Position numbers and translations under genes: made by a program. The notes beneath the pieces were generated by a model. That model saw only the letters and a program-made list of their open reading frames with translations, did no database searches and was not told the origin of the DNA. Below, one piece after another: positions 5,420 through 20,510 of a DNA stretch of 64,000 bases. The stretch is from Desulfatiglandales bacterium. GTDB lineage: Bacteria; Desulfobacterota; DSM-4660; Desulfatiglandales; Desulfatiglandaceae. Positions within the stretch are counted from its first letter, which is position 1, and every line of letters starts with the position of its first letter. Location: the NCBI GenBank assembly GCA_963662465.1, contig OY759599.1, positions 192,001-256,000 of the forward strand, given 5' to 3'.

Positions 5420-5806
5420 ATGATCAAATTCCGGTTAAAGATTGCAAGTGCGTATCTGGATGATGCGATGATGCTGTTCAGAGAAAAACGATTTAACAGT
5501 GCTGCCTCAAGAGCCTATTATGCATCCTATCAGGCCATGTGGGCGGCGCTTGGAGAACCGAAAGAGGGAAAAGTCTGGCGGCACCTCGGCATTATAAAGC
5601 ATTTTGTAACAGGATACTGGTTTGAATCGGGTCAAAAAGGGATTGGCCCCGGTTTGCTGGAGGAAAAACGGCTGCCGTTGAGGAGGCTATATTCCTACCG
5701 TATCAGAAGCGATTATGAAGCAACGTTTGTAGATGAAGATCAGTTGGCGGGTCTTCTGGAAATTGTAAGGCAGGTTATTCAATTCATTGAAGAAAAAGTG
5801 AGGTGA
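5420..5806 (+). CDS. HEPN domain protein (UPF0332-like)
   Basis: SRAYYASYQA, H.GII and RIRSDY motifs; 128 aa, helical. Confidence 0.8.
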   Translation: MIKFRLKIASAYLDDAMMLFREKRFNSAASRAYYASYQAMWAALGEPKEGKVWRHLGIIKHFVTGYWFESGQKGIGPGLLEEKRLPLRRLYSYRIRSDYEATFVDEDQLAGLLEIVRQVIQFIEEKVR

Positions 5807-5810
5807 GCAA

Positions 5811-6086
5811 ATGCTGGAAGCGAAAACCCTGGATAAGCGTCTGGCCGAAGCAGTTGCCAGGTTTGTCGATGCACTTCACCATATGTATCCGGGAATCAAT
5901 ATAAAGCCTATTGCCGGTTTTGAAGAAGAAGACTTCACGTTTGAGGTCGCAATTCCGAGAAGCCTTTCCCTCGAAGATGTTCTTGAGGATTGTCACAAGG
6001 AATGTATTAAGGTAGAGGATGAATACGATCTCTTTATTCTTCCCCATGTCATCTATGAGGGTGATCGAAAAATGCATGTTGTTTGA
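5811..6086 (+). CDS. small acidic protein, possible degenerate MNT-like partner of the HEPN protein
   Basis: 91 aa with GAGGTG RBS, 4 bp after the HEPN gene; acidic EEED motif but no GS motif. Confidence 0.55.
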   Translation: MLEAKTLDKRLAEAVARFVDALHHMYPGINIKPIAGFEEEDFTFEVAIPRSLSLEDVLEDCHKECIKVEDEYDLFILPHVIYEGDRKMHVV

Positions 6087-6420: not shown

Positions 6421-6765
6421 ACCTGTGCCGTCATTGTAAATACGAGGGATGCCATTGAAGCTGTGCGCCTGTGCGAAGATGCCGGCGGCGTTATTGAAGT
6501 GCTAACTCGCGTCGGTAAAACCGTCCCCACTGATGTCAAAATTCTCATCAAGGATACCGGATGCGGGATTAAGGCCGATGTGGATAAAATTTTCGACCCG
6601 TTTTTCACCACTAAAGAAGTCGGAAAGGGAACCGGGCTCGGGTTATCAATTAGCTATGGGATCATCAACGCGCACAAAGGCAAAATTGAAGTGACCGAAA
6701 CCGGCCCGGCTGGGACGATATTCCGCATTGCGTTACCGGCCATAATTCCCCTGAACGAAAAATGA
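6421..6765 (+). pseudogene. orphan HATPase_c fragment of a histidine kinase
   Basis: N-box remnant IVNTRDAI, DTGCGI and FDPFFTTKEVGKGTGLGL; in-frame TAG at 6418-6420 and no H-box upstream. Confidence 0.85.
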
Positions 6766-8541: not shown

Positions 8542-9207
8542 TTAAATGCCGACTTCGGTTTTGAACCGGTCAATACCCATGTCTTCGATCACTTTGGTAA
8601 GCCGCTGTTTTTTGGGAAAGTCCTTATACCAGTTCATGATTTTATCAATGGCGGCCAATGCTTCATCATCTGATAATTCCTCCGCCACGGGTTGCGCAAG
8701 GGCCGGCTTGGATGCGGCGTTGCCGCCCACCACCAGTTTCCATCCTTTTTTGGCGCCAATGAGGCCCAAATCCTTTATGTAGGACTCGGCACAACAATTC
8801 TGGCAGCCGGAAACGCCCATTTTAAATTTGCTCGGCAACTGCATCCCGCAATAGAGTTCGTCCAGTTTGATGCCCATGGTTACGGCGTCCTGAAGCCCCA
8901 GTTTGCAGAAAGTCGTTCCCGGGCAGAGTTTTACGCTGCGAACACATAACCCCACCGGGTTTGCGGATTGCATGCCCAATTCTTCCCAAATGGCGTCAAT
9001 GTCTTCTTCTTTGATGCCCACAAGAGCAATTCTGGCGGCGCTGGTGAGTTTGACGGCTGCCAGTGCATATTTTTCAGAGATGTCCGCGATTTTTCGCAGA
9101 ACTTCCGGCGTACAAAGGCCGCCCTTGATGTCCGGTACGATGGCGTAGGTTTCGCCATCTCTTTGAATCAGTGCGCCTTTTTCAAGAATGCTTTTTTTGT
9201 TTCCCAA
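8542..9207 (-). CDS. low-molecular-weight siroheme/[4Fe-4S] sulfite/nitrite reductase (assimilatory-type Sir-like)
   Basis: GALIQRDGETYAIVP; CPGTTFC and KFKMGVSGCQNCC ligand motifs; AGGAG RBS before TTG. Confidence 0.8.
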   Translation of the reverse strand: MGNKKSILEKGALIQRDGETYAIVPDIKGGLCTPEVLRKIADISEKYALAAVKLTSAARIALVGIKEEDIDAIWEELGMQSANPVGLCVRSVKLCPGTTFCKLGLQDAVTMGIKLDELYCGMQLPSKFKMGVSGCQNCCAESYIKDLGLIGAKKGWKLVVGGNAASKPALAQPVAEELSDDEALAAIDKIMNWYKDFPKKQRLTKVIEDMGIDRFKTEVGI

Positions 9208-9232: not shown

Positions 9233-10693
9233 TTACAGGAGTGGCCCCACAAGTTGAGCCGCGTTTTCCATAAATCGCTGAACCATCGAACGTTTTCGCC
9301 ATTGTTCCAGATCAAGCCGGGTGGAATTAGAGATATACTTCATCTGCATGTCCCGCACCTGTTCCGTAAACGCCAGGTCATATATAAAAAGAGAGACTTC
9401 AAAGTTAAGCCAGAGGCTGCGCATGTCAAGATTGACCGTGCCGAACACGCAGATCTCATCGTCCACCGTAATGGATTTGGTATGCAGCAATCCTCCGTTA
9501 AATGCCGCGATGGTGACCCCCGCACGCATGAGGTCGTCAAAAAGAGAGCGACTGGCGTAATGGACCAACCTTGAGTCCACTTCCGCGGGTACCACGATGG
9601 TGACGTCCACGTGGCGATGGGCTGCGGAAATAATGGCGGTCAGGAGTGCATCATCGGGTACGAAATAGGGTGTTGTCAGCACCAGTTTTTTTCGGGCGCC
9701 GTAGATGGTGGTCAGTAGGAGCTGATGAATGATTTCCGGTCTGATGGCAGGTCCCGAAGGGACCACCTGAACCGGCGTGGCGCCTTTTTTGGCGAGGGAG
9801 CGAATGTCGCTTGTTTCTTCAAGGGCTTTCAGGCCTTCACCCGTATCCAGTTCCCAATCCTCGATAAAGGTTCCGGCAAGGGCCTCCACGCTGGGGCCTT
9901 CCATGCGAACCATGGCGTCGATCCATTGACCCACGCCCTCGTTCTGCTTGAAAAATCGTGGGTCCACCAGATTCTGACTTCCCGTATAGGCAATTTCTCC
10001 ATCGATCACAACGATTTTTCGATGATTGCGTAGATCCGCCCTGGTCATCAGCAGACGCAGGGGACCGACCGGAAGGGATGCCACAACCTGAATGTCTGCA
10101 TCCCGAAGCTGTTGGGCCAGTTCGCTCCTGAGAAAGTCTTTGCTGCCGACGGCATCCACCAGCACCCGACAGATTACGCCTCGCCCTGCAGCCCGAATCA
10201 ACGATTTTGCCACGTCGTCGGCTTTTCCGCCCACGGTCCAGATATAAAATTCCAGGTGACAGGTGCTTTTTGCCTGGTCCACATCTTTAATGATGGCGGC
10301 GAAAACCGACTCAAAATGGTCCATGAGATGCATTTTGTTGCCGCTCATGGTCGGAAACCCCGCCACGGTTTCGGCGTGAAGCTGGATGGCTTTCATTTCG
10401 TTGTGCCCCGCGGGCGGCTTCTCCCGAGAAGCCCGCTTTTGAAGCGTTATCTGCCAGACTCGGTATAAATCATGGATTTTTGCCGCACGGGCGAGATATT
10501 TCTCGCCGATGCGGTTTTCGCCAATAAAAAAATAGAAAAGAGCGCCCGCAAAAGGGATGCTGAAAATGACCGTGAGCCATGCCAGGGATACCCCCACGGG
10601 TCGCCGTCGCATGATGACGCGGATGGAAAGCCCGATGACAATCAGCCAGTGGGCTGTAAAAAACAAGGTGGTGGTTAGGGTGAAATCATTCAT
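9233..10693 (-). CDS. cls: cardiolipin synthase
   Basis: Two N-terminal TM helices and two HKD motifs (HRKIVVID, HTKSITVD). Confidence 0.93.
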   Translation of the reverse strand: MNDFTLTTTLFFTAHWLIVIGLSIRVIMRRRPVGVSLAWLTVIFSIPFAGALFYFFIGENRIGEKYLARAAKIHDLYRVWQITLQKRASREKPPAGHNEMKAIQLHAETVAGFPTMSGNKMHLMDHFESVFAAIIKDVDQAKSTCHLEFYIWTVGGKADDVAKSLIRAAGRGVICRVLVDAVGSKDFLRSELAQQLRDADIQVVASLPVGPLRLLMTRADLRNHRKIVVIDGEIAYTGSQNLVDPRFFKQNEGVGQWIDAMVRMEGPSVEALAGTFIEDWELDTGEGLKALEETSDIRSLAKKGATPVQVVPSGPAIRPEIIHQLLLTTIYGARKKLVLTTPYFVPDDALLTAIISAAHRHVDVTIVVPAEVDSRLVHYASRSLFDDLMRAGVTIAAFNGGLLHTKSITVDDEICVFGTVNLDMRSLWLNFEVSLFIYDLAFTEQVRDMQMKYISNSTRLDLEQWRKRSMVQRFMENAAQLVGPLL

Positions 10694-12756
10694 GATATGG
10701 GTTTATCCAGTTCTGTTCTGACTGCAAAGCCTATCTTTTCCATGGCGTAGGGCTTTTTCACGTATTCCCCCGCGCCCAGGCGCTGGGCCTCTTTTACCCT
10801 CCATGTTTCTGAAAATCCGCTCGCAATAATGGCTTTTTGCTCCGGTTTCCATTTGATGATTTCCCGGAAGGTCTCCAGCCCATCCATGCCTCCCATAATC
10901 ATATCGAGTACCAGCAGATCAACGGAATTTTTCTTGATGTATTCAATCGCATCCTCTCCGCACGAAACGGTCTCAACCCGGTACCCGAGGTTTGACAAAA
11001 TAGCAGCGGCAATCATCCGCTGCTCTTCCAGATCATCCACAACGAGAACGGATTCACCATGCCCCCTGTAGTCGTCAATGGCAACCGTTGACTTTCCATG
11101 GGGTAAATCTCCCCTGTTTGCGGGAAAATACAAGGTGAAAACACTCCCTTTTCCTTCGAGGCTCTGAACATCGATATATCCGCCATGGTCTTTGACGGTT
11201 CCCCAGACCACCGCCATCCCCAGGCCGGTTCCGCTTCTCCCCATGACTTTCTTGGTATAAAAGGGCTCAAATATTTGTTTTATATCCTGGGGAGAAATGC
11301 CGACGCCTGAATCGGCTACGGTGAGGACCACATAGTCGCCTTCTTTCACTTTATCGAAGCCTTTCACGGGTCGGTCAACATGTCGGTTTTCCGTTGAAAT
11401 ACGGACCTTCCCACCGTCGGGCATGGCCTCCACCGCATTGGAAATCAAGTTCATGACCGTCTTGGAAAGATGAACCGGCGAACCCATGAGATAAAGGAGA
11501 TCGTTCGCGAGGAGAACCTCAATTTCAACGCTGGGATGAAATGAAAGAAGCCGTTGGTATTCCGGACTTCGCAAATGCTCGGTAACGATAGGGTTCAAAT
11601 CAACCACTTCTCTCGGCGCGGCGCCTCTTCTGGCCAGGGTGAGAAGATCCTGCACAATGGCGGCGGCTCTTTCTCCGGATTTTCGGATGGTGGAGATCGG
11701 TTTTCGCAAAGGGCTGTCCTCCGGTAAATCCAGTAACAGGATTTCCGGATAGGTCACGATTCCCGAAAGGATATTGTTCAAGTCATGGGCGACGCCCCCG
11801 GCAAGTGTGCCGATGGCTTCCATTTTTTCAGACCGCTGAAGTCTGGCTTCAAGTTCACGTTTCTCCATATCGGCCAGTTTCCTTTCGGTGATATCCTTCA
11901 CCGTTCCGATGCTCGCAATCTTATCTTTATAAGTGATGGTATCGATGTTGATATTCAGATAAACACGGGTTTTGCCATCCTTGTGAAGCATTCGGAATTC
12001 GTATTCCTTTTCCACTTTTTCTCCGGCCTGTCGCCGGCTGTTACGCTCTGCCAGGATGTTCCGGTCTTCCGGCGCCACAAGCTTTTGAAATTCCATCCCG
12101 ATGATTTCCGCCAATGGGTGCCCGGACATCTTGGCCAGGGCATCATTTGCAAACAAAAATTTGTTGTCTTGAATAATAAAGACACCATCCTGGATATTTT
12201 CAATGAGGGTGCGGTATTTTTCCTCGGACTGTTTTATGGCCTCCTGTGTTTTGGCGCGTTCTTTGATTTCCTCATGAACACTTTTGATCATCTGATTGGT
12301 CACATGCTTGAGAGATTCCAGGAGTTCCACAGTGGAGTCTCCTCGAACCCGTGCCGTCAGGTCACCCCTTGTGAGACGGTGCATTACATCGAAATGCTCG
12401 GCCAGTCCCATGGCAAACTCGTGGGACAGGTCCACCATCTCTCCCAGATTCTCGGCGGTTTTGTTGACAAGTTGCTTCAACTTGGAAATCAGTTCAAGAC
12501 TGGAATTTTCAGAGATCCTGACCATGGGATCTCCGGAAGAAATCTTCTTCAAAGCTTCGAAAACTTCTGAAAGCCCCAACGCCATTTCCATGCTGATGGT
12601 TTCCAGTTCTCGATCCCTTTTTTCAAGTGTCTTCTTTGCTTCTAAAAACTGCTCGGAAACGGTTTTGTAAGATGGTTCCATGGCTGCGAAATCCATATTT
12701 TCAGGGTTGCTTGTGACAATGCACTGCCGGCTTTCCAAGCAAAATTCCCAGTTCAT
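10690..12756 (-). CDS. cytoplasmic hybrid histidine kinase (tandem HAMP-like, PAS, HisKA, HATPase, REC)
   Basis: GGVAHDLNNIL, GRSGTGLG, C-terminal REC (LDMIM); no TM segment; ATGA overlaps with tusA upstream and cls downstream. Confidence 0.9.
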   Translation of the reverse strand: MNWEFCLESRQCIVTSNPENMDFAAMEPSYKTVSEQFLEAKKTLEKRDRELETISMEMALGLSEVFEALKKISSGDPMVRISENSSLELISKLKQLVNKTAENLGEMVDLSHEFAMGLAEHFDVMHRLTRGDLTARVRGDSTVELLESLKHVTNQMIKSVHEEIKERAKTQEAIKQSEEKYRTLIENIQDGVFIIQDNKFLFANDALAKMSGHPLAEIIGMEFQKLVAPEDRNILAERNSRRQAGEKVEKEYEFRMLHKDGKTRVYLNINIDTITYKDKIASIGTVKDITERKLADMEKRELEARLQRSEKMEAIGTLAGGVAHDLNNILSGIVTYPEILLLDLPEDSPLRKPISTIRKSGERAAAIVQDLLTLARRGAAPREVVDLNPIVTEHLRSPEYQRLLSFHPSVEIEVLLANDLLYLMGSPVHLSKTVMNLISNAVEAMPDGGKVRISTENRHVDRPVKGFDKVKEGDYVVLTVADSGVGISPQDIKQIFEPFYTKKVMGRSGTGLGMAVVWGTVKDHGGYIDVQSLEGKGSVFTLYFPANRGDLPHGKSTVAIDDYRGHGESVLVVDDLEEQRMIAAAILSNLGYRVETVSCGEDAIEYIKKNSVDLLVLDMIMGGMDGLETFREIIKWKPEQKAIIASGFSETWRVKEAQRLGAGEYVKKPYAMEKIGFAVRTELDKPIS

Positions 12757-12980
12757 TCGAACCGGATCTGTATCCTTTTCTTGCCGCCCCCCTCATCCCT
12801 GATGGAAAGGAACGTTTTCCCCAACCGTTCACACCATACACGCACATCCCTTTCAAAGGTCGGGCAGTCTCCCAATACCTCGAGGATATCGCCGGGGTTC
12901 ATGTCCGGGGCCTTTACCGCAATCTTAAGAACGGGCTGCGGGCATTTCATCCCCAGCATATCCAAAATTTCAATGGCCAT
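12753..12980 (-). CDS. tusA: TusA/SirA family sulfur carrier
   Basis: LDMLGMKCPQP motif; 75 aa. Confidence 0.88.
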   Translation of the reverse strand: MAIEILDMLGMKCPQPVLKIAVKAPDMNPGDILEVLGDCPTFERDVRVWCERLGKTFLSIRDEGGGKKRIQIRFE

Positions 12981-13002
12981 GTTATAATCTCCTTATAAAC
13001 AA

Positions 13003-14388
13003 TCAGTGGGTCGCACATGCCAGACACGGATCATAGGCCCGATAAGCCATCTCAATCCGGTTCAGAATCGCATCTGAAACGTTTCCTTCTTTGATGAATG
13101 CTCGGGCCGCTTTTAGAACGGACAGGTTTATGGCGCCTGCATTGTTCTGGGTGGCGACAATCAGATTCAGTCTCTTCAGGATGGCCGCTTCATCCGTTTC
13201 ATAGTGATGAATCAGGGTGCCTCTCGGGGCTTCGCAGATCCCCACCCCTTCATGAGGAAGCTGCTCCGGAATATTTCTGACGTTCGGATCGGTCAGTCGA
13301 TCATCTGAAGCAATTTCAGTCATCCGCTCCGCCGCAAATAAAACTTCAATCAGCCGCGCCCAGTGATACAGAAGGGTATTGTGAGCGGGTTTTCCCCCAC
13401 ATGCCGCAAACATCCGGTCATAGGCCTGTTGTGCCAAAGGCGTTGCCATGCCGTCTGATGCGTTCAACCTGGCAAGGGGACCCACTCTGTACAATCCGCT
13501 TTCCTCACCATCAGACAGGCCATGCCATCCGACGCTTTTCAGATAGAGGGTTTTCATATAACTCCAGGCATCCACTCGTTCTTCCAGATGCTTCACATAA
13601 TCTCCCGCACCAAATTTTTCAAACTCACCGCCTTGGGGATCGACAACCCGTATGTCGCCATCATAGAAACTCACGTGATTTTTCCGGTCAACCATGCCCA
13701 TGTAATAGGTTTGAAGGGAAAATATTTCCGAATGCATCAGCTCAACATATTCCCGGTCTGTCAGAACCTCTTCTTCAAAAATATTCAGGCACAATTGCGC
13801 AAACACCAGCGCATCCCTGGCAATTTCTTTTATCCCGGCTCGTTCTTCTTCGGATACCGGTTTTGACACGCCGCCTGGGAGCCCGCAAACCGGATAGAGC
13901 GGACTGCCACTGATCAGGGTGTTGAGCCCGCGAACACGCTTTCGAATCTCAATCACCTGTTTTCCGATTTTTTTCCCCAGTTTCCCAATCACCCCGAAAA
14001 TATTTTTCCCTAACCCCTCGTCATGAGACCCAATCAAAAGATCCGGTCCCCCGAGATAGAAAAAATGCAGGAGATGGTCTTCATAGATGAAGGCCGTGTG
14101 CATCAATTCCCTGATTTTTTTTGCCGCCGCCGTGGGTTCCACGTCAAAGAGAGCGTCCAGTGTCTTTACGGATGCGATATGATGTGCCGTGGGGCATACC
14201 CCGCAAATCTTCTGGGTCAGGGTGGGCATTTCCTCCGCGGCTCTGCCTTCGCAGAATTTCTCAAACCCCCTGAACTCCGGAACCTGGAAAAAAGCATGAT
14301 CAACCCGGCCCAGAGCGTCAAGGCGTATCTCGATATTTCCATGCCCTTCAATCCGGGTCACCGGATCTATGATGATTCTGCGGCTCAT
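13003..14388 (-). CDS. mvhA: [NiFe] hydrogenase large subunit, group 3c/MvhA-like, without C-terminal extension
   Basis: DPVTRIEGHG, KICGVCPTAH, VGPLAR, EAPRGTLIHHY, then DPCLACATH followed directly by the stop. Confidence 0.9.
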   Translation of the reverse strand: MSRRIIIDPVTRIEGHGNIEIRLDALGRVDHAFFQVPEFRGFEKFCEGRAAEEMPTLTQKICGVCPTAHHIASVKTLDALFDVEPTAAAKKIRELMHTAFIYEDHLLHFFYLGGPDLLIGSHDEGLGKNIFGVIGKLGKKIGKQVIEIRKRVRGLNTLISGSPLYPVCGLPGGVSKPVSEEERAGIKEIARDALVFAQLCLNIFEEEVLTDREYVELMHSEIFSLQTYYMGMVDRKNHVSFYDGDIRVVDPQGGEFEKFGAGDYVKHLEERVDAWSYMKTLYLKSVGWHGLSDGEESGLYRVGPLARLNASDGMATPLAQQAYDRMFAACGGKPAHNTLLYHWARLIEVLFAAERMTEIASDDRLTDPNVRNIPEQLPHEGVGICEAPRGTLIHHYETDEAAILKRLNLIVATQNNAGAINLSVLKAARAFIKEGNVSDAILNRIEMAYRAYDPCLACATH

Positions 14389-15359
14389 ATGTCAGTCCCT
14401 TTTATACTCCCCAGAATGGAGCGGGGCGCACTGTAGCGATAAAAAAGTCCCCCCGGATCAGGAATCGAAGCCGTAATCTCCCTGATTTCATTTTCCTGGT
14501 GGGCATCGATTATGGAAGCCAGAAAAGACACCATGGCGGCCCCATGATCTTCTGTGTTGTCAAGGGGGCCAAAACAGCCCCGACAGGGCATATTGGCCCG
14601 GATACAGCGGCTGCCGCATCCCCCCCTTGTTGCGGGTCCCAGACAGATCAACCCCTGGGGGAGAAAACATTTTTTGGGGTCCCATTCGGTTTCATGCACC
14701 CTTCTGAATCTTTTGACCCGTATGCGCTCAGGGTAGCTGTCCCGGCGGGGACAGGTATGACAAAGCGTCTTCCTGTCGCCGAATACGAAACCTTTTTCCG
14801 GAAGCTTTCCCTCAAGTACCGCTCCTATGGCTTCGCCCACGAGTTCAGGGGGCGGCGGACATCCTGGAATATAACCGTCTACGGCAATAACCTGGTCCAG
14901 GGTCATGACCTTGTCCAAAAGACCGGAAAGTTTCGGCGTTTTCCCTGAATCCGCCACCTGTTTCCCCGGTAGAATGGCCCCCGGGTTTTTGATGGTGGAA
15001 ACTTCCACAAAGGACCGCGTCAGAAGTTCTTGAACACTGTGAAAATTGCCTAGTCCCACAATGCCGCCCAGGTGAGCGCAGGTCCCATGGGCAAAAACGC
15101 GTTTGGATTTTCGACGGAGCAGTTTGGCCATATGAGCCTGCTCATGCGTTCTTATGGCGCCGTTAATCAAGGCTAGATCAATTTCACCATCCCCCAATGC
15201 TTCCACGTCCTTTCGTCTGCCGTCCATGGCCACGGGCCAGAAAACGACGTCTACGCGCATTGAGAGTTCCAGAAGATCTTCGGAAAGATCGATCACCGAT
15301 TCCTCGCATCCGCCGCAACCAGAACACCAGTAAAGGGCAATTTTCGGCTTATTAGACAT
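14385..15359 (-). CDS. mvhG: [NiFe] hydrogenase small subunit, MvhG-like
   Basis: WCSGCGGCE, GTCA, PGCPP, CHTCP, CLGPATRGGC and PCRGC motifs; no Tat signal. Confidence 0.9.
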   Translation of the reverse strand: MSNKPKIALYWCSGCGGCEESVIDLSEDLLELSMRVDVVFWPVAMDGRRKDVEALGDGEIDLALINGAIRTHEQAHMAKLLRRKSKRVFAHGTCAHLGGIVGLGNFHSVQELLTRSFVEVSTIKNPGAILPGKQVADSGKTPKLSGLLDKVMTLDQVIAVDGYIPGCPPPPELVGEAIGAVLEGKLPEKGFVFGDRKTLCHTCPRRDSYPERIRVKRFRRVHETEWDPKKCFLPQGLICLGPATRGGCGSRCIRANMPCRGCFGPLDNTEDHGAAMVSFLASIIDAHQENEIREITASIPDPGGLFYRYSAPRSILGSIKGTDI

Positions 15360-15792
15360 GGTTTAAGTGCCCCAGTTCTTTCAATATATTGACCATTTGC
15401 ACAACGATGCGGGCATATTTTTCTCCGTCGTTCGCTGAAACGGAATTGAAGGATATCCTTTCTTTTTCAATGCCGTAGTGTTGGAGGACCTGCTCTAACA
15501 ACGGGATGCGTTTCAATGCCTCAATATTGCCGCTCTTGTAATGGCAATCGCCCGGGGCGCAACCAAGAATCAGAACCCCGTCGGCGCCGAGCCTGAATGC
15601 TTCCAGAACGAATCGGGGATCAACCCGACCACTGCACATGACGCGGATTTCCCGCAGATTGCCGGAGGGAAATTCTTTCCGACTTCTTCCCGCGGCATCG
15701 GCGCCTTCGTAGGAACACCAGTTGCACAGAAAAACGACGACCTTCGGCTCAAAGCTTTGCATGGCGGATCCATTTTCGTCTTCATATTTCAC
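15352..15792 (-). CDS. mvhD: hydrogenase iron-sulfur subunit MvhD
   Basis: FLCNWCSY, VMCSGRVDP and GCAPGDCHY motifs. Confidence 0.92.
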   Translation of the reverse strand: MKYEDENGSAMQSFEPKVVVFLCNWCSYEGADAAGRSRKEFPSGNLREIRVMCSGRVDPRFVLEAFRLGADGVLILGCAPGDCHYKSGNIEALKRIPLLEQVLQHYGIEKERISFNSVSANDGEKYARIVVQMVNILKELGHLNHV

Positions 15793-15793
15793 G

Positions 15794-17749
15794 TTACGCC
15801 AGCAGACCCCTTAACTCCGAAAGGATGACGCCCGTGGAAAAATGTCTCCCATTTATGGCGCCGCTGGGACAGGCAGCGACACAAACGCCGCATCCCCTGC
15901 ACATGGCCTGGTTGATGGAAACCGTTGCCCCACCATCCTCCATGGCAATGGCTTTGAATGCACAGAGGCTGATGCAGAGCAGGCATCCTGAGCAGATTGC
16001 CGGATCAATTTCACAGGCCATGGGCTCCAGCGCCAGTGGTTTTCCCGGCTGCAGTTTTCCCATGATTTTGCCGGCGGCGGCATGCCCCTGGGCCACCGAA
16101 GAGGGAATATCTTTAGGTCCCTGTGCGCATCCTGCCATAAAGATACCTTCCCTGACGGTGGAAACAGGATCTAGTTCAGTATCGGCCTCCTCAAAAAATC
16201 CGTCTTCCCCAAGTTTTACATCCAGAATCCCGGCTATTTTCTCTGTTCCCTCATCACGCTCCATGGCCGTCGCCAGAACCACCATATCGAATTCCCGTTG
16301 TTTCAGTTTCCCCGAGACATCGGTATGGGTAACGTTGATCCGTTCGGCGCCTTTTCGGATTTCAATGGCGTCCGGTTGCAACATGCGAAAAAAATCAATG
16401 CCATCCTTTTCCAGAACCTTCCGGTAGAAACGCTGAGCATCTTTTCCGGGAAGACACAAATCGGCATGAAACTCGCTAATCCCGGCTTCCGGCAACTGCA
16501 TCCTGGCCTGGTGTGCATGCTTGAGGGTCACCAGACAGCAAACGCCGGAACAGTAGTCATTGAATTTTTCCGTCCTCGACCCCACACAATGGATAAAGGC
16601 GATGTTTCGGGGAGGTTGACCGTTTTCCAGCAGAATTTTCCCCTCCGTGGGACCGGCTGAATTAACCAGTTGCTCAAATTCAAGACCGGTTAAAATGTCT
16701 TCGGACTTTCCATACCCATACCGGTCGTCTTTTTTCGGGTCAAAGGGGACGAAACCCGTGGCAATCACAAGAGCCCCCACCTTTAATTCCCGGATGCCGG
16801 CGGCTTCCTCATAGTGAATCGCGCCAAAGGGACAGGATGCCAGGCATGCGATGCATGGCTCATCCTGAAACCGCAAACAGTTCTTCTCGTCTATCAGCGC
16901 TACGTTGGGAAGGGCGCCCGGATAGGGGATATAGATGGCTTTGGGAACGGCCATTCCCCTCGTGAATGGACCGGGCACGGAAACGGGACAGGCTTCGAAA
17001 CAGGCGCCGCAGCCGATACAGGCATCAAGGTCCACATGACGCGCCTTTTGCCGGATCGTCGCGACAAAATTTCCTAAATATCCCTTTACCTCAAGGAGTT
17101 CGGTCAATGTCAGTACTTCAATGTCATCATGATGCAATACGGCATCCAATTGGGATTCCATCAAACAGGATGCACACACCATGTTCGGATAGAGATCTTC
17201 ATGCCGAGCAACCCTGCCTCCGATACAGGGCTCTTTCTCCAGGAGATATACCTTCCGGTTCTTTTGTGCAATGGTCAGCGCCGCGCTGATCCCCGCAACA
17301 CCCGCGCCCACCACCAGGACATCCGCACAGCATGCGATGGTTTTCATCTCGATAGGCGCATGCAGGCTCACCCGTTTGATGGCCCCACGAATCAGTGCCG
17401 CGGCTTTTTGGGTAGCGTTACGCTTATCTGTTATTACCCAGGCGCACTGTTCCCGAATGTTGGCTATCTGCAGGAGAAAAGGATTGAGCCCTGCCGCTTT
17501 CAAGACCTCCCGAAAGGTGGCTTCATGTTCCTTAGGCGAACAGCCTGCGATGACAACCCGCGACAACTTGTGGGCTTGAATGTCTTCCTTCAGGAACTTT
17601 TTCCCATCCGGCGAACACAGAAAATCGAAAGATTTCGCCATCACCACATCTTCTTGCGCCCTTGCGGTTTCCAGCAACGCCGCAATGTCCACGGTATCTT
17701 TGATATTGGGACCGCATTCGCAAATATATATGCCGATTCTTTGAAACAT
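15794..17749 (-). CDS. hdrA: heterodisulfide reductase subunit A-like flavoprotein
   Basis: YICECGPNI, NIREQCAWV, GAGVAG, HCVGSR, YCSGVCC and GCAQGPKDIP motifs; inserted and C-terminal ferredoxin domains. Confidence 0.92.
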   Translation of the reverse strand: MFQRIGIYICECGPNIKDTVDIAALLETARAQEDVVMAKSFDFLCSPDGKKFLKEDIQAHKLSRVVIAGCSPKEHEATFREVLKAAGLNPFLLQIANIREQCAWVITDKRNATQKAAALIRGAIKRVSLHAPIEMKTIACCADVLVVGAGVAGISAALTIAQKNRKVYLLEKEPCIGGRVARHEDLYPNMVCASCLMESQLDAVLHHDDIEVLTLTELLEVKGYLGNFVATIRQKARHVDLDACIGCGACFEACPVSVPGPFTRGMAVPKAIYIPYPGALPNVALIDEKNCLRFQDEPCIACLASCPFGAIHYEEAAGIRELKVGALVIATGFVPFDPKKDDRYGYGKSEDILTGLEFEQLVNSAGPTEGKILLENGQPPRNIAFIHCVGSRTEKFNDYCSGVCCLVTLKHAHQARMQLPEAGISEFHADLCLPGKDAQRFYRKVLEKDGIDFFRMLQPDAIEIRKGAERINVTHTDVSGKLKQREFDMVVLATAMERDEGTEKIAGILDVKLGEDGFFEEADTELDPVSTVREGIFMAGCAQGPKDIPSSVAQGHAAAGKIMGKLQPGKPLALEPMACEIDPAICSGCLLCISLCAFKAIAMEDGGATVSINQAMCRGCGVCVAACPSGAINGRHFSTGVILSELRGLLA

Positions 17750-18218: not shown

Positions 18219-20510
18219 ATGTCGCTGAAATTAAAGGCCGGACTCATTTTCCTCGGGATTTTCATTTTATACTGTGCCACTGACTATGCGCTTCAGAAAT
18301 TCGTCATTTTCCCAAGCTTCATTGAATTGGAACACGCCGAAGCCGGTAAAGACCTGGAACGGGCAATAGCGGCGATAAAGGGGGAAGTTCAACATCTCAA
18401 CACCTTCTGCTGGGATTGGTCCGCATGGGATGACACCTATGAATTCGTTGCAGACCCATCACGCAAATATATCGAAAGCAATCTGACCACGACCACCTTC
18501 ACCGATAACCGCATCAATCTCATCTATTTCGTTAATAGTGTCGGAACCGTTGTCTGGGGTGAAATCCGTGATCTGAAAAGTGAAAAACGGATAAGCCTGA
18601 AGGGTTTTGAAGTGGGTACGCTTAAAGACCGGCATGCCCTTTTTCCTCCGGAAAAGGGCGGCGGGAAACTTTCGGAGAATTCCGTCTCCGGGTTGCTGGC
18701 CACCGAAAAAGGACCCATGCTGGTTGCCTCTCGGCCCATACTCACCAGTGAAAATGAGGGACCTGCTCGGGGAACCCTGATTATGGGTCGGTTTCTGGAT
18801 GACCGTTTGATTGAAAATCTCGTGAACCAGTCCAAGGTCTTTTTTCGAATTCAGCCGGTTCTTGCGGGCTCACTTCCTGGGTTTGAGAAGAAAACGGCCG
18901 CCGGAAAGGACTCGAAATATTCCATCGAACAGCAAGGAAAAGAGCATCTGTGCATTCAGACGCCGTTGCCCGATGTGATCGGCAAAGATAACTTTTTGAT
19001 ATCCGCGGTGGTCCACAGAACGATTTCCCTGAAAGGTTATGAAACAACGCGGTATGCCTTCGTTACGGGTTTTGTTTCCGTGCTGGTGATGCTGATCATG
19101 ATGTTGTTCGTTTTGCAGCGGACCATTCTCAGGCCCATGGTAAGGTTAAAGAATCATGCGCTTGCTGTTGGAAAGACCGGCGATCTTTCGTCCCGCCTCA
19201 AAATGCGACGCCGGGATGAAATCGGCGAACTGGCCGGAGGATTTGACGCCATGTTGGAGAAGCTGGAAGAGCGGACGGAAAAAGTTGCGCGATTGAACCA
19301 GGACATGAAAAAAGACATGGCGAGGCGTATCGAGGCGGAGGCGGCTTTGCGGGAAAGTGAAAAGAAACGCTTCAGGTCAAAAAAAATGGAATCCCTGGGC
19401 CTCATGGCCGGGGGCATTGCCCACGATTTGAACAACATTCTCTCGGGAATCGTCAGTTATCCGGAATTGCTGCTCATGGATTTGCCGAAAGACAGTTCTC
19501 TAAGGAAGCCCATCAACACGATCCGTGAATCCGGTTTGAGAGCAGCGGGTGTGGTGGCGGATTTGTTAACTGTGGCTAGGGGCGTTGCCGCGGATAAGCA
19601 GGTTATGAATTTAAACCGGATAGTTGAAGAATACCTGCATTCGCCTGAACACAAAAAAAATGCCGCGGTGCATTTTTCGGTCCGGTTGAAAGTTGATCTT
19701 GATTCTTCTCCGTTTAATATATGGTGCTCGCCGGTTCATATCAAAAAAATCCTGATGAACCTGGTTTTGAACGCTTTGGAGGCCATTGAAGACCGGGGTA
19801 CCGTGACGATTTCAACGGTAAACCGGTATTTGGATGAGCCGTTAAAGGGATATGCGGAGGTCCGTATTGGCGAGTATGCAGTACTGAGGGTGTCGGATGA
19901 TGGGTCGGGGATCTCTTGTGCGGATCTGGATCGTATTTTCGAACCGTTCTATACCCGAAAAGTAATGGGCCGAAGCGGCACGGGCCTGGGGTTGGCGGTG
20001 GTCTGGAATACGGTTCAGGAACATGATGGATATATTAATGTCCTGAGCAACGAAAAAGGCACCCTGTTTGAGCTTTATTTCCCGATTACCCGAAATCAAC
20101 CGACGATGGCGCAAGAGGAGATTCCACTTAAAGAATATCTGGGTCATGGGGAGAAAATCCTGGTGGTTGACGACGAGGCTCAGCAAAGAGAAATCGCCCG
20201 CGGAATGCTGGTTCGTCTGGGCTACCATGTTGAATCTGTGGCCAGTGGGGAAGAGGCCGTTGAATATGTAAAACACCATGCCGTGGATCTTATGGTTCTG
20301 GATATGTTGATGCCCGAAGGGATCAATGGCCGTGAAACATACGAGCGGATTTTGGCTATTCGTCCCTCCCAGAAGGCGATTATCGCCAGCGGATTTTCTA
20401 AAACAGAGGATGCGAAAGTTACGCAACGGTTGGGCGCGGGAAAGTACCTCCAAAAGCCCTATACCCTTGAAACCATGGGGCTTGCTGTTAAGGGAGAACT
20501 GGATAAATAA
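18219..20510 (+). CDS. membrane hybrid histidine kinase (CHASE4, HAMP, HisKA, HATPase, REC)
   Basis: DWSAWDDTYEF CHASE4 motif, two TM helices, GGIAHDLNNIL and a C-terminal REC. Confidence 0.92.
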   Translation: MSLKLKAGLIFLGIFILYCATDYALQKFVIFPSFIELEHAEAGKDLERAIAAIKGEVQHLNTFCWDWSAWDDTYEFVADPSRKYIESNLTTTTFTDNRINLIYFVNSVGTVVWGEIRDLKSEKRISLKGFEVGTLKDRHALFPPEKGGGKLSENSVSGLLATEKGPMLVASRPILTSENEGPARGTLIMGRFLDDRLIENLVNQSKVFFRIQPVLAGSLPGFEKKTAAGKDSKYSIEQQGKEHLCIQTPLPDVIGKDNFLISAVVHRTISLKGYETTRYAFVTGFVSVLVMLIMMLFVLQRTILRPMVRLKNHALAVGKTGDLSSRLKMRRRDEIGELAGGFDAMLEKLEERTEKVARLNQDMKKDMARRIEAEAALRESEKKRFRSKKMESLGLMAGGIAHDLNNILSGIVSYPELLLMDLPKDSSLRKPINTIRESGLRAAGVVADLLTVARGVAADKQVMNLNRIVEEYLHSPEHKKNAAVHFSVRLKVDLDSSPFNIWCSPVHIKKILMNLVLNALEAIEDRGTVTISTVNRYLDEPLKGYAEVRIGEYAVLRVSDDGSGISCADLDRIFEPFYTRKVMGRSGTGLGLAVVWNTVQEHDGYINVLSNEKGTLFELYFPITRNQPTMAQEEIPLKEYLGHGEKILVVDDEAQQREIARGMLVRLGYHVESVASGEEAVEYVKHHAVDLMVLDMLMPEGINGRETYERILAIRPSQKAIIASGFSKTEDAKVTQRLGAGKYLQKPYTLETMGLAVKGELDK

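Follow-up and report, generated by a model that had tools for sequence, protein, structure and literature searches.

We describe a conserved and apparently undescribed cassette of six tightly packed genes, hdrA-mvhD-mvhG-mvhA-tusA followed by a gene for a soluble hybrid histidine kinase. It lies on the minus strand of a 64,000-nucleotide stretch of DNA (the window) that is part of a single 8.16 Mb contig of a Desulfatiglandales bacterium. The gene set is real and is shared by many anaerobes, which suggests a way of turning H2 or redox state into a signal, and the relay through TusA is possibly new. In our judgement the chances are about even that the cassette encodes a cytoplasmic system for sensing H2 or redox state, one that arose from the group 3c Mvh-HdrA complex and is relayed via TusA. 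The means by which H2 or internal reducing power is sensed in sulfate reducers and syntrophs is largely an open question. Gene identities in the cassette are supported by Pfam, NCBIfam and PDB searches.

Conservation of the neighbourhood was followed from two of the genes. A scan of species genomes for the TusA subfamily of the cassette gave 460 matches; the best 79 loci were examined and 74 of them had at least 600 bp on each side. In 37 of these 74 mvhA stood directly before tusA and the sensor input module directly after it; 16 loci had the input module only, 11 had mvhA only and 10 had neither. The set was seeded with cassette contexts, related assemblies in it are not independent and no P value is attached to the counts, a limit that weighs against the sensing interpretation. 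The 37 full-context loci came from 37 different assemblies, placed in Desulfobacterales, Desulfatiglandales, Desulfosarcina, Syntrophobacteraceae and Nitrospirota or left as unplaced Deltaproteobacteria, and hdrA was seen in 24 of them. Intact cassettes are present in the cultured Desulfosarcina widdelii PP31 (L057) and D. variabilis Montpellier (L062). That the same order is found in dozens of assemblies is more than expected by chance. When MvhA served as the anchor (the top-scoring matches in species genomes and 20 chosen others, of 179), tusA was next to mvhA in 7 of 7 members of the clade described below, with a sensor after it in 6, and in none of the 53 other rows, four of which had less than 600 bp of room. 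Among 401 genomes the TusA subfamily occurred in 11 and the paired HAMP-like input in 9, all inside those 11; every one of the 11 had an MvhA match, as against 141 of the 401 overall. The initial annotation had asked whether relatives of the window MvhA carry tusA and a soluble sensor and group by themselves, and they do both. hdrB was found at 1 of 51 clade loci versus 17 of 62 others, and a hydrogenase protease gene (69-sequence profile) at 0 of 51 versus 46 of 75. Metabolic genes are not conserved neighbours of the cassette, and a plasmid search with its TusA gave no match.

All 51 tusA-linked MvhA proteins formed one clade to the exclusion of 51 others (FastTree support 1.0), which IQ-TREE recovered at 99.9/100 with 22 and 20 rows. 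Three sequences without a C-terminal motif (L020, L029 and L030), frameshifted or partial MvhA and exact duplicates were left out before the tree was built. The clade is nested among hdrA/mvhD-linked MvhA, and on this sequence evidence the large subunit is a [NiFe] group 3c enzyme by descent. Its PDB and NCBIfam matches are to group 3, with no sign of group 2 large-subunit ancestry; MvhG keeps the ligands of three clusters, and MvhD and HdrA are adjacent, as in group 3c. The alignment of MvhG with 5ODC_E reaches residue 315 of 324, so it has no long extension comparable to the C-terminal domain with which the small subunit of group 2b binds its kinase. The Ni-site residues Cys62, Cys65, Cys455 and Cys458 are present in 51 of 51 clade members. 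Position 165 is Tyr in 48 of the 51 and His in 49 of 49 others; the position is the equivalent of His229, and Tyr165 aligns with the His of the GKNPH-like loop of the group 1 enzyme, which according to the available part of PMC3940037 points at the proximal cluster and is conserved to invariance. MvhA Cys385 is found in 51 of 51 clade members and 0 of 49 others, and Cys168 in 37 of 51. In MvhG, Cys12 occurs in 37 of 42 clade rows versus 1 of 41 others; His91 and His96, each in 37 of 42, together with Cys12 adjoin the proximal ligands Cys15, Cys18 and Cys94. The substitutions of the two subunits would thus cluster in space around the proximal cluster, and Tyr165, MvhA Cys385 and MvhG Cys12 serve as marker residues. 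In HdrA, additional cysteines (543, 142, 177 and 434) are enriched in the clade, on a comparison with only 7 non-clade rows. An independent metagenome set of 80 loci had tusA and the two-CW domain of the sensor next to 3 of the 4 Tyr165 enzymes with downstream room; for enzymes without Tyr165, tusA was next in 2 of 62 and the HAMP pair in 0 of 62. The initial annotation had stated that the known H2-sensing hydrogenases of group 2b lack a C-terminal tail. The window MvhA is itself tail-less, the final Ni-site His being its end; tails are absent from 26 of 51 clade members, are 7-50 residues long in the other 25 and 24-30 in nearly all non-clade enzymes, three of which lack one. Tail loss was rejected as a sign of sensing on these counts.

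Some relatives of these enzymes have departed in other ways. One locus (L020, 7184-10637) holds a decayed Mvh cluster with mvhD fragments and an MvhA cut within its last motif. Two others (L029, 9550-10896; L030, 2905-4254) encode an MvhA-like protein without recognisable Ni-binding motifs at both ends, in the order hdrCB-hdrA-mvhD-mvhG-mvhA, with a ferredoxin gene and a gene of 630 aa behind it; this may be an Mvh variant that does without nickel.

The main argument for sensing comes from the sensor genes. Kinase cores behind the input module in full cassettes are 22-85% identical to that of the window and fall into at least four H-box types. The initial annotation took the output to be a kinase, which does not hold throughout: one otherwise complete cassette (L088) ends in a PAS-sigma-54 activator, and another locus (L050, 2866-10486) reads hdrA-mvhD-tusA, then RsbR-like, RsbS-like and RsbT/SpoIIE-like genes, then mvhG-mvhA, a stressosome-type output in which the RsbR-like sensor is a one-HAMP STAS protein. 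At L256 a convergent gene for a soluble chemoreceptor follows tusA. Among 79 input-module proteins of the 150 best representatives, 44 carried HATPase, 8 GGDEF, 3 HD and 2 MCP domains. The module is also found away from tusA: four of five genomes that have mvhA-tusA and no adjacent sensor hold 8-11 input matches elsewhere, some full-length, and G452-G455 each have 8-11 two-CW and/or HAMP-pair paralogues, many without tusA alongside. Since the input is kept while the outputs are exchanged, and a mere regulator of the operon would need neither, we infer that the target of some cassette product is the input module. At two further loci (L192, L048) two signalling genes stand between mvhG and mvhA, with a Tll0287-GGDEF gene and a tusA-sensor pair just upstream.

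In intact relatives of the window kinase the N-terminus is formed by a two-CW domain with seven cysteines (NF045718; 36.1 bits in the congener L018, cut-off 35). Behind it come a coiled coil and a pair of HAMP-like repeats, which Pfam does not see. The input is this module and not a PAS domain as in HoxJ. The two-CW domain is present in 36 of the 37 sensors adjoining mvhA-tusA, and three conserved His columns of the HAMP-like module are filled in 46, 44 and 41 of 46 sequences. A structure model of the intact module (mean predicted local distance difference test, pLDDT, 88.8) had as its best structural match the poly-HAMP of Aer2 (3LNR; Z 8.6, root-mean-square deviation 3.0 over 129 aligned residues, modest values for a helical protein; Foldseek E 0.7), and the fold matches left the two-CW part uncovered. 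A PDB sequence search with the module gave chance coiled-coil matches only. A search of the window's own genome for the two-CW family returned zero matches, controls included, and is hence uninformative. The window kinase is soluble, as first described: its highest 19-residue hydropathy is 1.14, no transmembrane segment being present. None of 36 cassette sensors exceeds 1.9.

TusA is the best candidate for the product that acts on the input, because it travels with either partner alone, is the slowest-changing of the genes and keeps three cysteines. Its fold is that of TusA (template-modelling score 0.87 to 3LVJ_C; PF01206 above cut-off, CPxP cysteine present), the NCBIfam TusA and YedF equivalog cut-offs are not reached, and all of its 120 top homologues (120 of 120) share the three cysteine motifs. 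Modelled as a 2:2 complex, TusA and the intact input module scored 0.46, the best of three controls 0.17; runs agreed in at least 90% of contacts and the partners had pLDDT of 86-87. Of 157 solved pairs 116 attain the mark used for such complexes, as do 2 of 215 mismatched pairs; at scores of 0.60 or less it is attained by only 18 of the 157 solved pairs and by both mismatched ones. The models thus weakly favour docking of TusA on the input. The distances between two-CW domains correlate with those between MvhA proteins (Spearman 0.80, with no correction for shared descent). The earlier suggestion of TusA as the link was strengthened by its pairing with the input at the 16 loci without the hydrogenase, and the co-folding adds weak support.

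On this basis the following sequence of events can be proposed. MvhAG, matured by Hyp proteins in trans without a protease, would equilibrate with H2, and electrons would pass via MvhD into HdrA. With no HdrBC, and hence no stoichiometric heterodisulfide sink, the complex would report H2 against the ferredoxin/flavin poise rather than carry flux. Its state could then be written on the three-cysteine TusA as thiol or disulfide, persulfide or metal loading. TusA might in turn dock on the two-CW/HAMP-pair module, and the HAMP pair would switch the fused output, in the window a hybrid kinase; a single hydrogenase-TusA unit may serve many receptors in trans. A wider form of the idea is more speculative, and we hold it to be rather less probable than the sensing role itself: it would be a third, independently evolved kind of H2 sensing, in which a 3c hydrogenase whose proximal cluster has been retuned, together with an HdrBC-less HdrA, sets the redox or sulfur state of a diffusible TusA messenger. 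In anaerobes this messenger would dock on a family of two-CW/HAMP-pair receptors, of which a genome may hold as many as about ten, and so drive outputs that include kinases, cyclases and sigma-54 activators as well as stressosome proteins and chemoreceptors.

A number of observations, given here and below, weigh against a sensing role. The marker substitutions are not perfectly tied to the cassette: one Tyr165 enzyme (L208) has no tusA and a sigma-54 activator in its place, and 4 of 75 enzymes outside the clade likewise have another residue (Met, Gln, Ser or Asn) for the proximal His. One genome (G451) keeps hdrA-mvhDGA-tusA with a two-CW match only. Either half of the cassette is dispensable, which blurs the sensed cue: five loci keep mvhG-mvhA-tusA-sensor without hdrA-mvhD and point to H2 as the signal, and one (L126) keeps hdrA-mvhD-tusA-sensor without mvhGA and points to general redox poise. 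At L108, L110, L113, L116 and L127 a gene for an MscS channel replaces hdrA-mvhD, and in four of these five 3-hydroxyacyl-CoA dehydrogenase and thiolase genes lie behind the kinase. The enzymes with Met, Gln, Ser or Asn for the proximal His (L222, L231, L232, L262) are of group 3c, and those of L231 and L232 are located among Etf-like genes.

The strongest competitor, to which we give about one chance in four, is a metabolic enzyme with a monitor: HdrA-MvhDGA would carry flux from H2 to ferredoxin and a high-potential acceptor, which could be HdrBC supplied in trans or else sulfur bound to TusA. The sensor would do no more than read the TusA pool or control the operon. HdrA looks canonical, with its FAD site and all Fe-S cysteine motifs in an alignment over residues 4-649 that also contains the Glu and Lys which we take to be flavin-binding, and the Ni site is intact. 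The genome encodes 4 HdrB and 3 HdrC paralogues elsewhere, so that a bifurcating complex could form in trans, and about twenty HdrA-like proteins. In G127 and G192 sister operons read mvhG-mvhA-hycI-hdrA-mvhD-tusA, with His165, a tail and a protease gene, without HdrBC and with no HAMP-pair match; TusA therefore joined Mvh-HdrA before the Tyr clade arose, and in operons of this type it may serve metabolism. In the available part of PMC4053972 a metabolic role is proposed for an Mvh/HdrA cluster that lacks HdrBC. It is difficult to reconcile with such an enzyme that the five loci above drop hdrA-mvhD and keep mvhGA-tusA-sensor, that protease and tail are lost, that the proximal cluster is altered and that no metabolic neighbours are conserved.

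It should be noted that the copy in the window is itself a derived form. From the end of tusA to the conserved kinase motif there are 59 bp in the window versus 249 and 228 bp in two congeners, and DNA alignment with congeners places a deletion of 170-190 bp near 12715 that removed the kinase start codon and the two-CW domain, NF045718 being without a match in the window kinase. The first ~20 codons of the annotated kinase are former spacer. The ATGA overlap of tusA and the kinase is a product of this deletion and so is incidental rather than ancestral; translational coupling was rejected as evidence for that reason. An assembly artefact was rejected as well, as the closest neighbour locus (L054, a Desulfatiglandales sister species with ~91-93% DNA identity in the flanks) has the same junction and it is spanned without interruption by contigs from two studies, one source of them, run X1, possibly being the window's own. 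In the sister species mvhD, mvhA and the kinase core have been deleted as well, together with the greater part of hdrA; the same joints are present in run X5.

These losses tell against sensing, and they raise the possibility, somewhat less probable than a metabolic enzyme, that the window copy is an uncoupled relic which no longer signals in a cassette on its way to being lost, whatever the family does. No obvious ribosome-binding site precedes the remaining kinase ATGs, and cassette-type TusA and the input module are single-copy in this genome. All six frames are intact, however, and the ratio of nonsynonymous to synonymous substitution rates (dN/dS) against congeners is 0.01-0.19, similar to the values of the congeners themselves, tusA being the most constrained cassette gene at 0.01-0.03. 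Since the split from the sister species it is 0.04 for tusA and 0.11 for the HAMP part, on a par with the 0.05-0.22 of flanking genes; a value of 0.61 for hdrA was set aside because of an apparent misalignment of the slice. The kinase retains its H box, its ATP boxes and the receiver Asp (there is no Hpt domain), and HAMP-pair proteins without a two-CW domain are common in nature. The window copy thus lacks the two-CW domain and continues to be subject to purifying selection.

That TusA and its receptor form a self-contained sensor of sulfane sulfur, sulfide or a metal, the hydrogenase being a regulated target or reset system, is the least probable of these explanations, as its support (the pair stands without mvhA at 16 of 74 loci and is separable from the hydrogenase, L126 has no hydrogenase, several TusA-sensor copies occur per genome with some in chemotaxis clusters, and TusA has a sulfur-carrier fold) is set against a dedicated MvhA clade with its own substitutions, the correlated distances, and tusA in or beside an mvh cluster in 10 of the 11 genomes, the exception (G223) having as its sole MvhA match a distant enzyme 2 Mb away.

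Table 1. Features of the cassette, with window positions
Feature	Position	Strand	Remarks
hdrA	15794..17749	minus	651 aa, full-length canonical HdrA; 5ODC_A E 1e-157, 8RVU E 7e-165 (residues 4-649)
mvhD (FlpD)	15352..15792	minus	PF02662 E 9e-46; five Cys conserved; likely true start 15762
mvhG, small subunit	14385..15359	minus	5ODC_E E 5e-67; all cluster ligands kept
mvhA, group 3c-type [NiFe] large subunit	13003..14388	minus	461 aa; best PDB match 5ODC_F E 3e-107
tusA-like, three-cysteine subfamily	12753..12980	minus	PF01206; Cys13, Cys39, Cys50
Remnant spacer with deletion point (~12715)	12697..12752	minus	DNA alignment with L017, L018, L054, L055
Remaining kinase input: coiled coil and two HAMP-like repeats, conserved His	12150..12696	minus	no Pfam match
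Soluble hybrid histidine kinase	10690..12756	minus	HAMP pair-PAS-HisKA-HATPase-REC, CckA-like core

An open reading frame check confirmed the coordinates of the six genes (Table 1), and the junctions are as first read: a 1-bp gap (hdrA/mvhD), an 8-bp overlap (mvhD/mvhG), ATGA overlaps (mvhG/mvhA and tusA/kinase) and a 22-bp gap (mvhA/tusA). The 1-bp gap hinges on a GTG start of mvhD; homologues start at an ATG ten codons later, which would widen it to about 31 bp. As had been stated, no hdrB/hdrC, hyp or protease family was found among the 29 window proteins scanned. A full Hyp set lies elsewhere in the genome, which has one further [NiFe] hydrogenase, of group 1 type, adjoined by its only hycI protease gene. 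The promoter scan of the window (2 versus 7.6 expected) and the terminator scan (16 versus 14.2 expected) were uninformative, and one RNA run yielded only short, divergent contig pieces, which speak neither for nor against expression. The packed run extends past the kinase, whose end is overlapped by ATGA with a cardiolipin synthase gene (9233-10693, minus); a small NIR_SIR Fe-S protein gene (8542-9207, minus) comes next. Both were rejected as cassette members, as they are not conserved beside it elsewhere, the cardiolipin synthase of the sister species excepted. Genes similar to the NIR_SIR gene stand in tandem near another Hdr/Mvh cluster (L029). Divergent from hdrA is a CHASE4-HAMP hybrid kinase (18219-20510, plus) whose core is 55% identical to that of the cassette kinase; it was deleted along with the cassette in the sister species and in congeners does not stand beside it. 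The window also holds an orphan HATPase piece of a kinase (6463-6765, plus) and a HEPN gene followed by a small partner gene (5420-6086, plus), toxin-antitoxin-like.

No description of the cassette was found in a search of the openly readable literature. HydDB, in the available part of PMC5037454, treats class 3c as heterodisulfide reductase-linked and lists sensing only for [NiFe] 2b/2c and [FeFe] C. The available parts of PMC13490349, PMC7117923 and PMC9304861 treat Mvh/Hdr as metabolic and leave the cassette undescribed. Should a sensing role hold, a group 3c sensor would be added to the sensory [NiFe] classes 2b and 2c, TusA would gain a signalling role, the unannotated two-CW/HAMP-pair module would gain a ligand, and some genomes scored as 'H2-bifurcating 3c' would in fact hold a sensor.

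Among known systems, MvhAGD-HdrABC (5ODC, 9SW2), in which H2 reduces ferredoxin and a heterodisulfide in a coupled reaction, is the evident relative: cassette MvhA, MvhG, MvhD and HdrA are homologous to its subunits over their full length and retain the Ni and Fe-S ligands. The cassette differs in having neither hdrBC nor a protease gene, a tail that is often lost, Tyr for the proximal His, extra Cys and His in MvhG and linkage to TusA and a receptor. Like the group 2b systems HoxBC-HoxJ-HoxA and HupUV-HupT, it combines a cytoplasmic [NiFe] enzyme, tail-less in the window, with an adjoining soluble PAS-containing kinase. In group 2b, according to the available part of PMC8229454, HoxC is tail-less and HoxB binds HoxJ. 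The cassette has group 3c ancestry instead, with HdrA/MvhD and TusA, a two-CW/HAMP-pair input and varied outputs, and neither a HoxA-like cognate regulator nor a regulated hydrogenase operon beside it. By analogy it may work like a group 2b system without belonging to one. Group 2c [NiFe] and group C [FeFe] enzymes are likewise putative sensors because of the different outputs beside which they are encoded (kinase, cyclase, chemoreceptor, phosphatase), whereas the cassette belongs to another hydrogenase lineage and places a separate small cysteine protein between enzyme and receptor. TusA, YedF and YeeD (3LVJ, 8J4C) share with the cassette protein the fold, the CPxP cysteine and a second Cys at the YedF position. 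TusA receives persulfide from IscS and also occurs with sHdr in sulfur oxidisers. The cassette TusA differs by its three near-invariant cysteines and its linkage to a receptor, with no DsrE, rhodanese, YeeE or HdrBC alongside. Finally, the Aer2 poly-HAMP resembles the input in its tandem HAMP-like units within a soluble receptor, but the cassette input shows no sequence match to it, is capped by the seven-cysteine two-CW domain and is fused to kinases, cyclases and sigma-54 activators.

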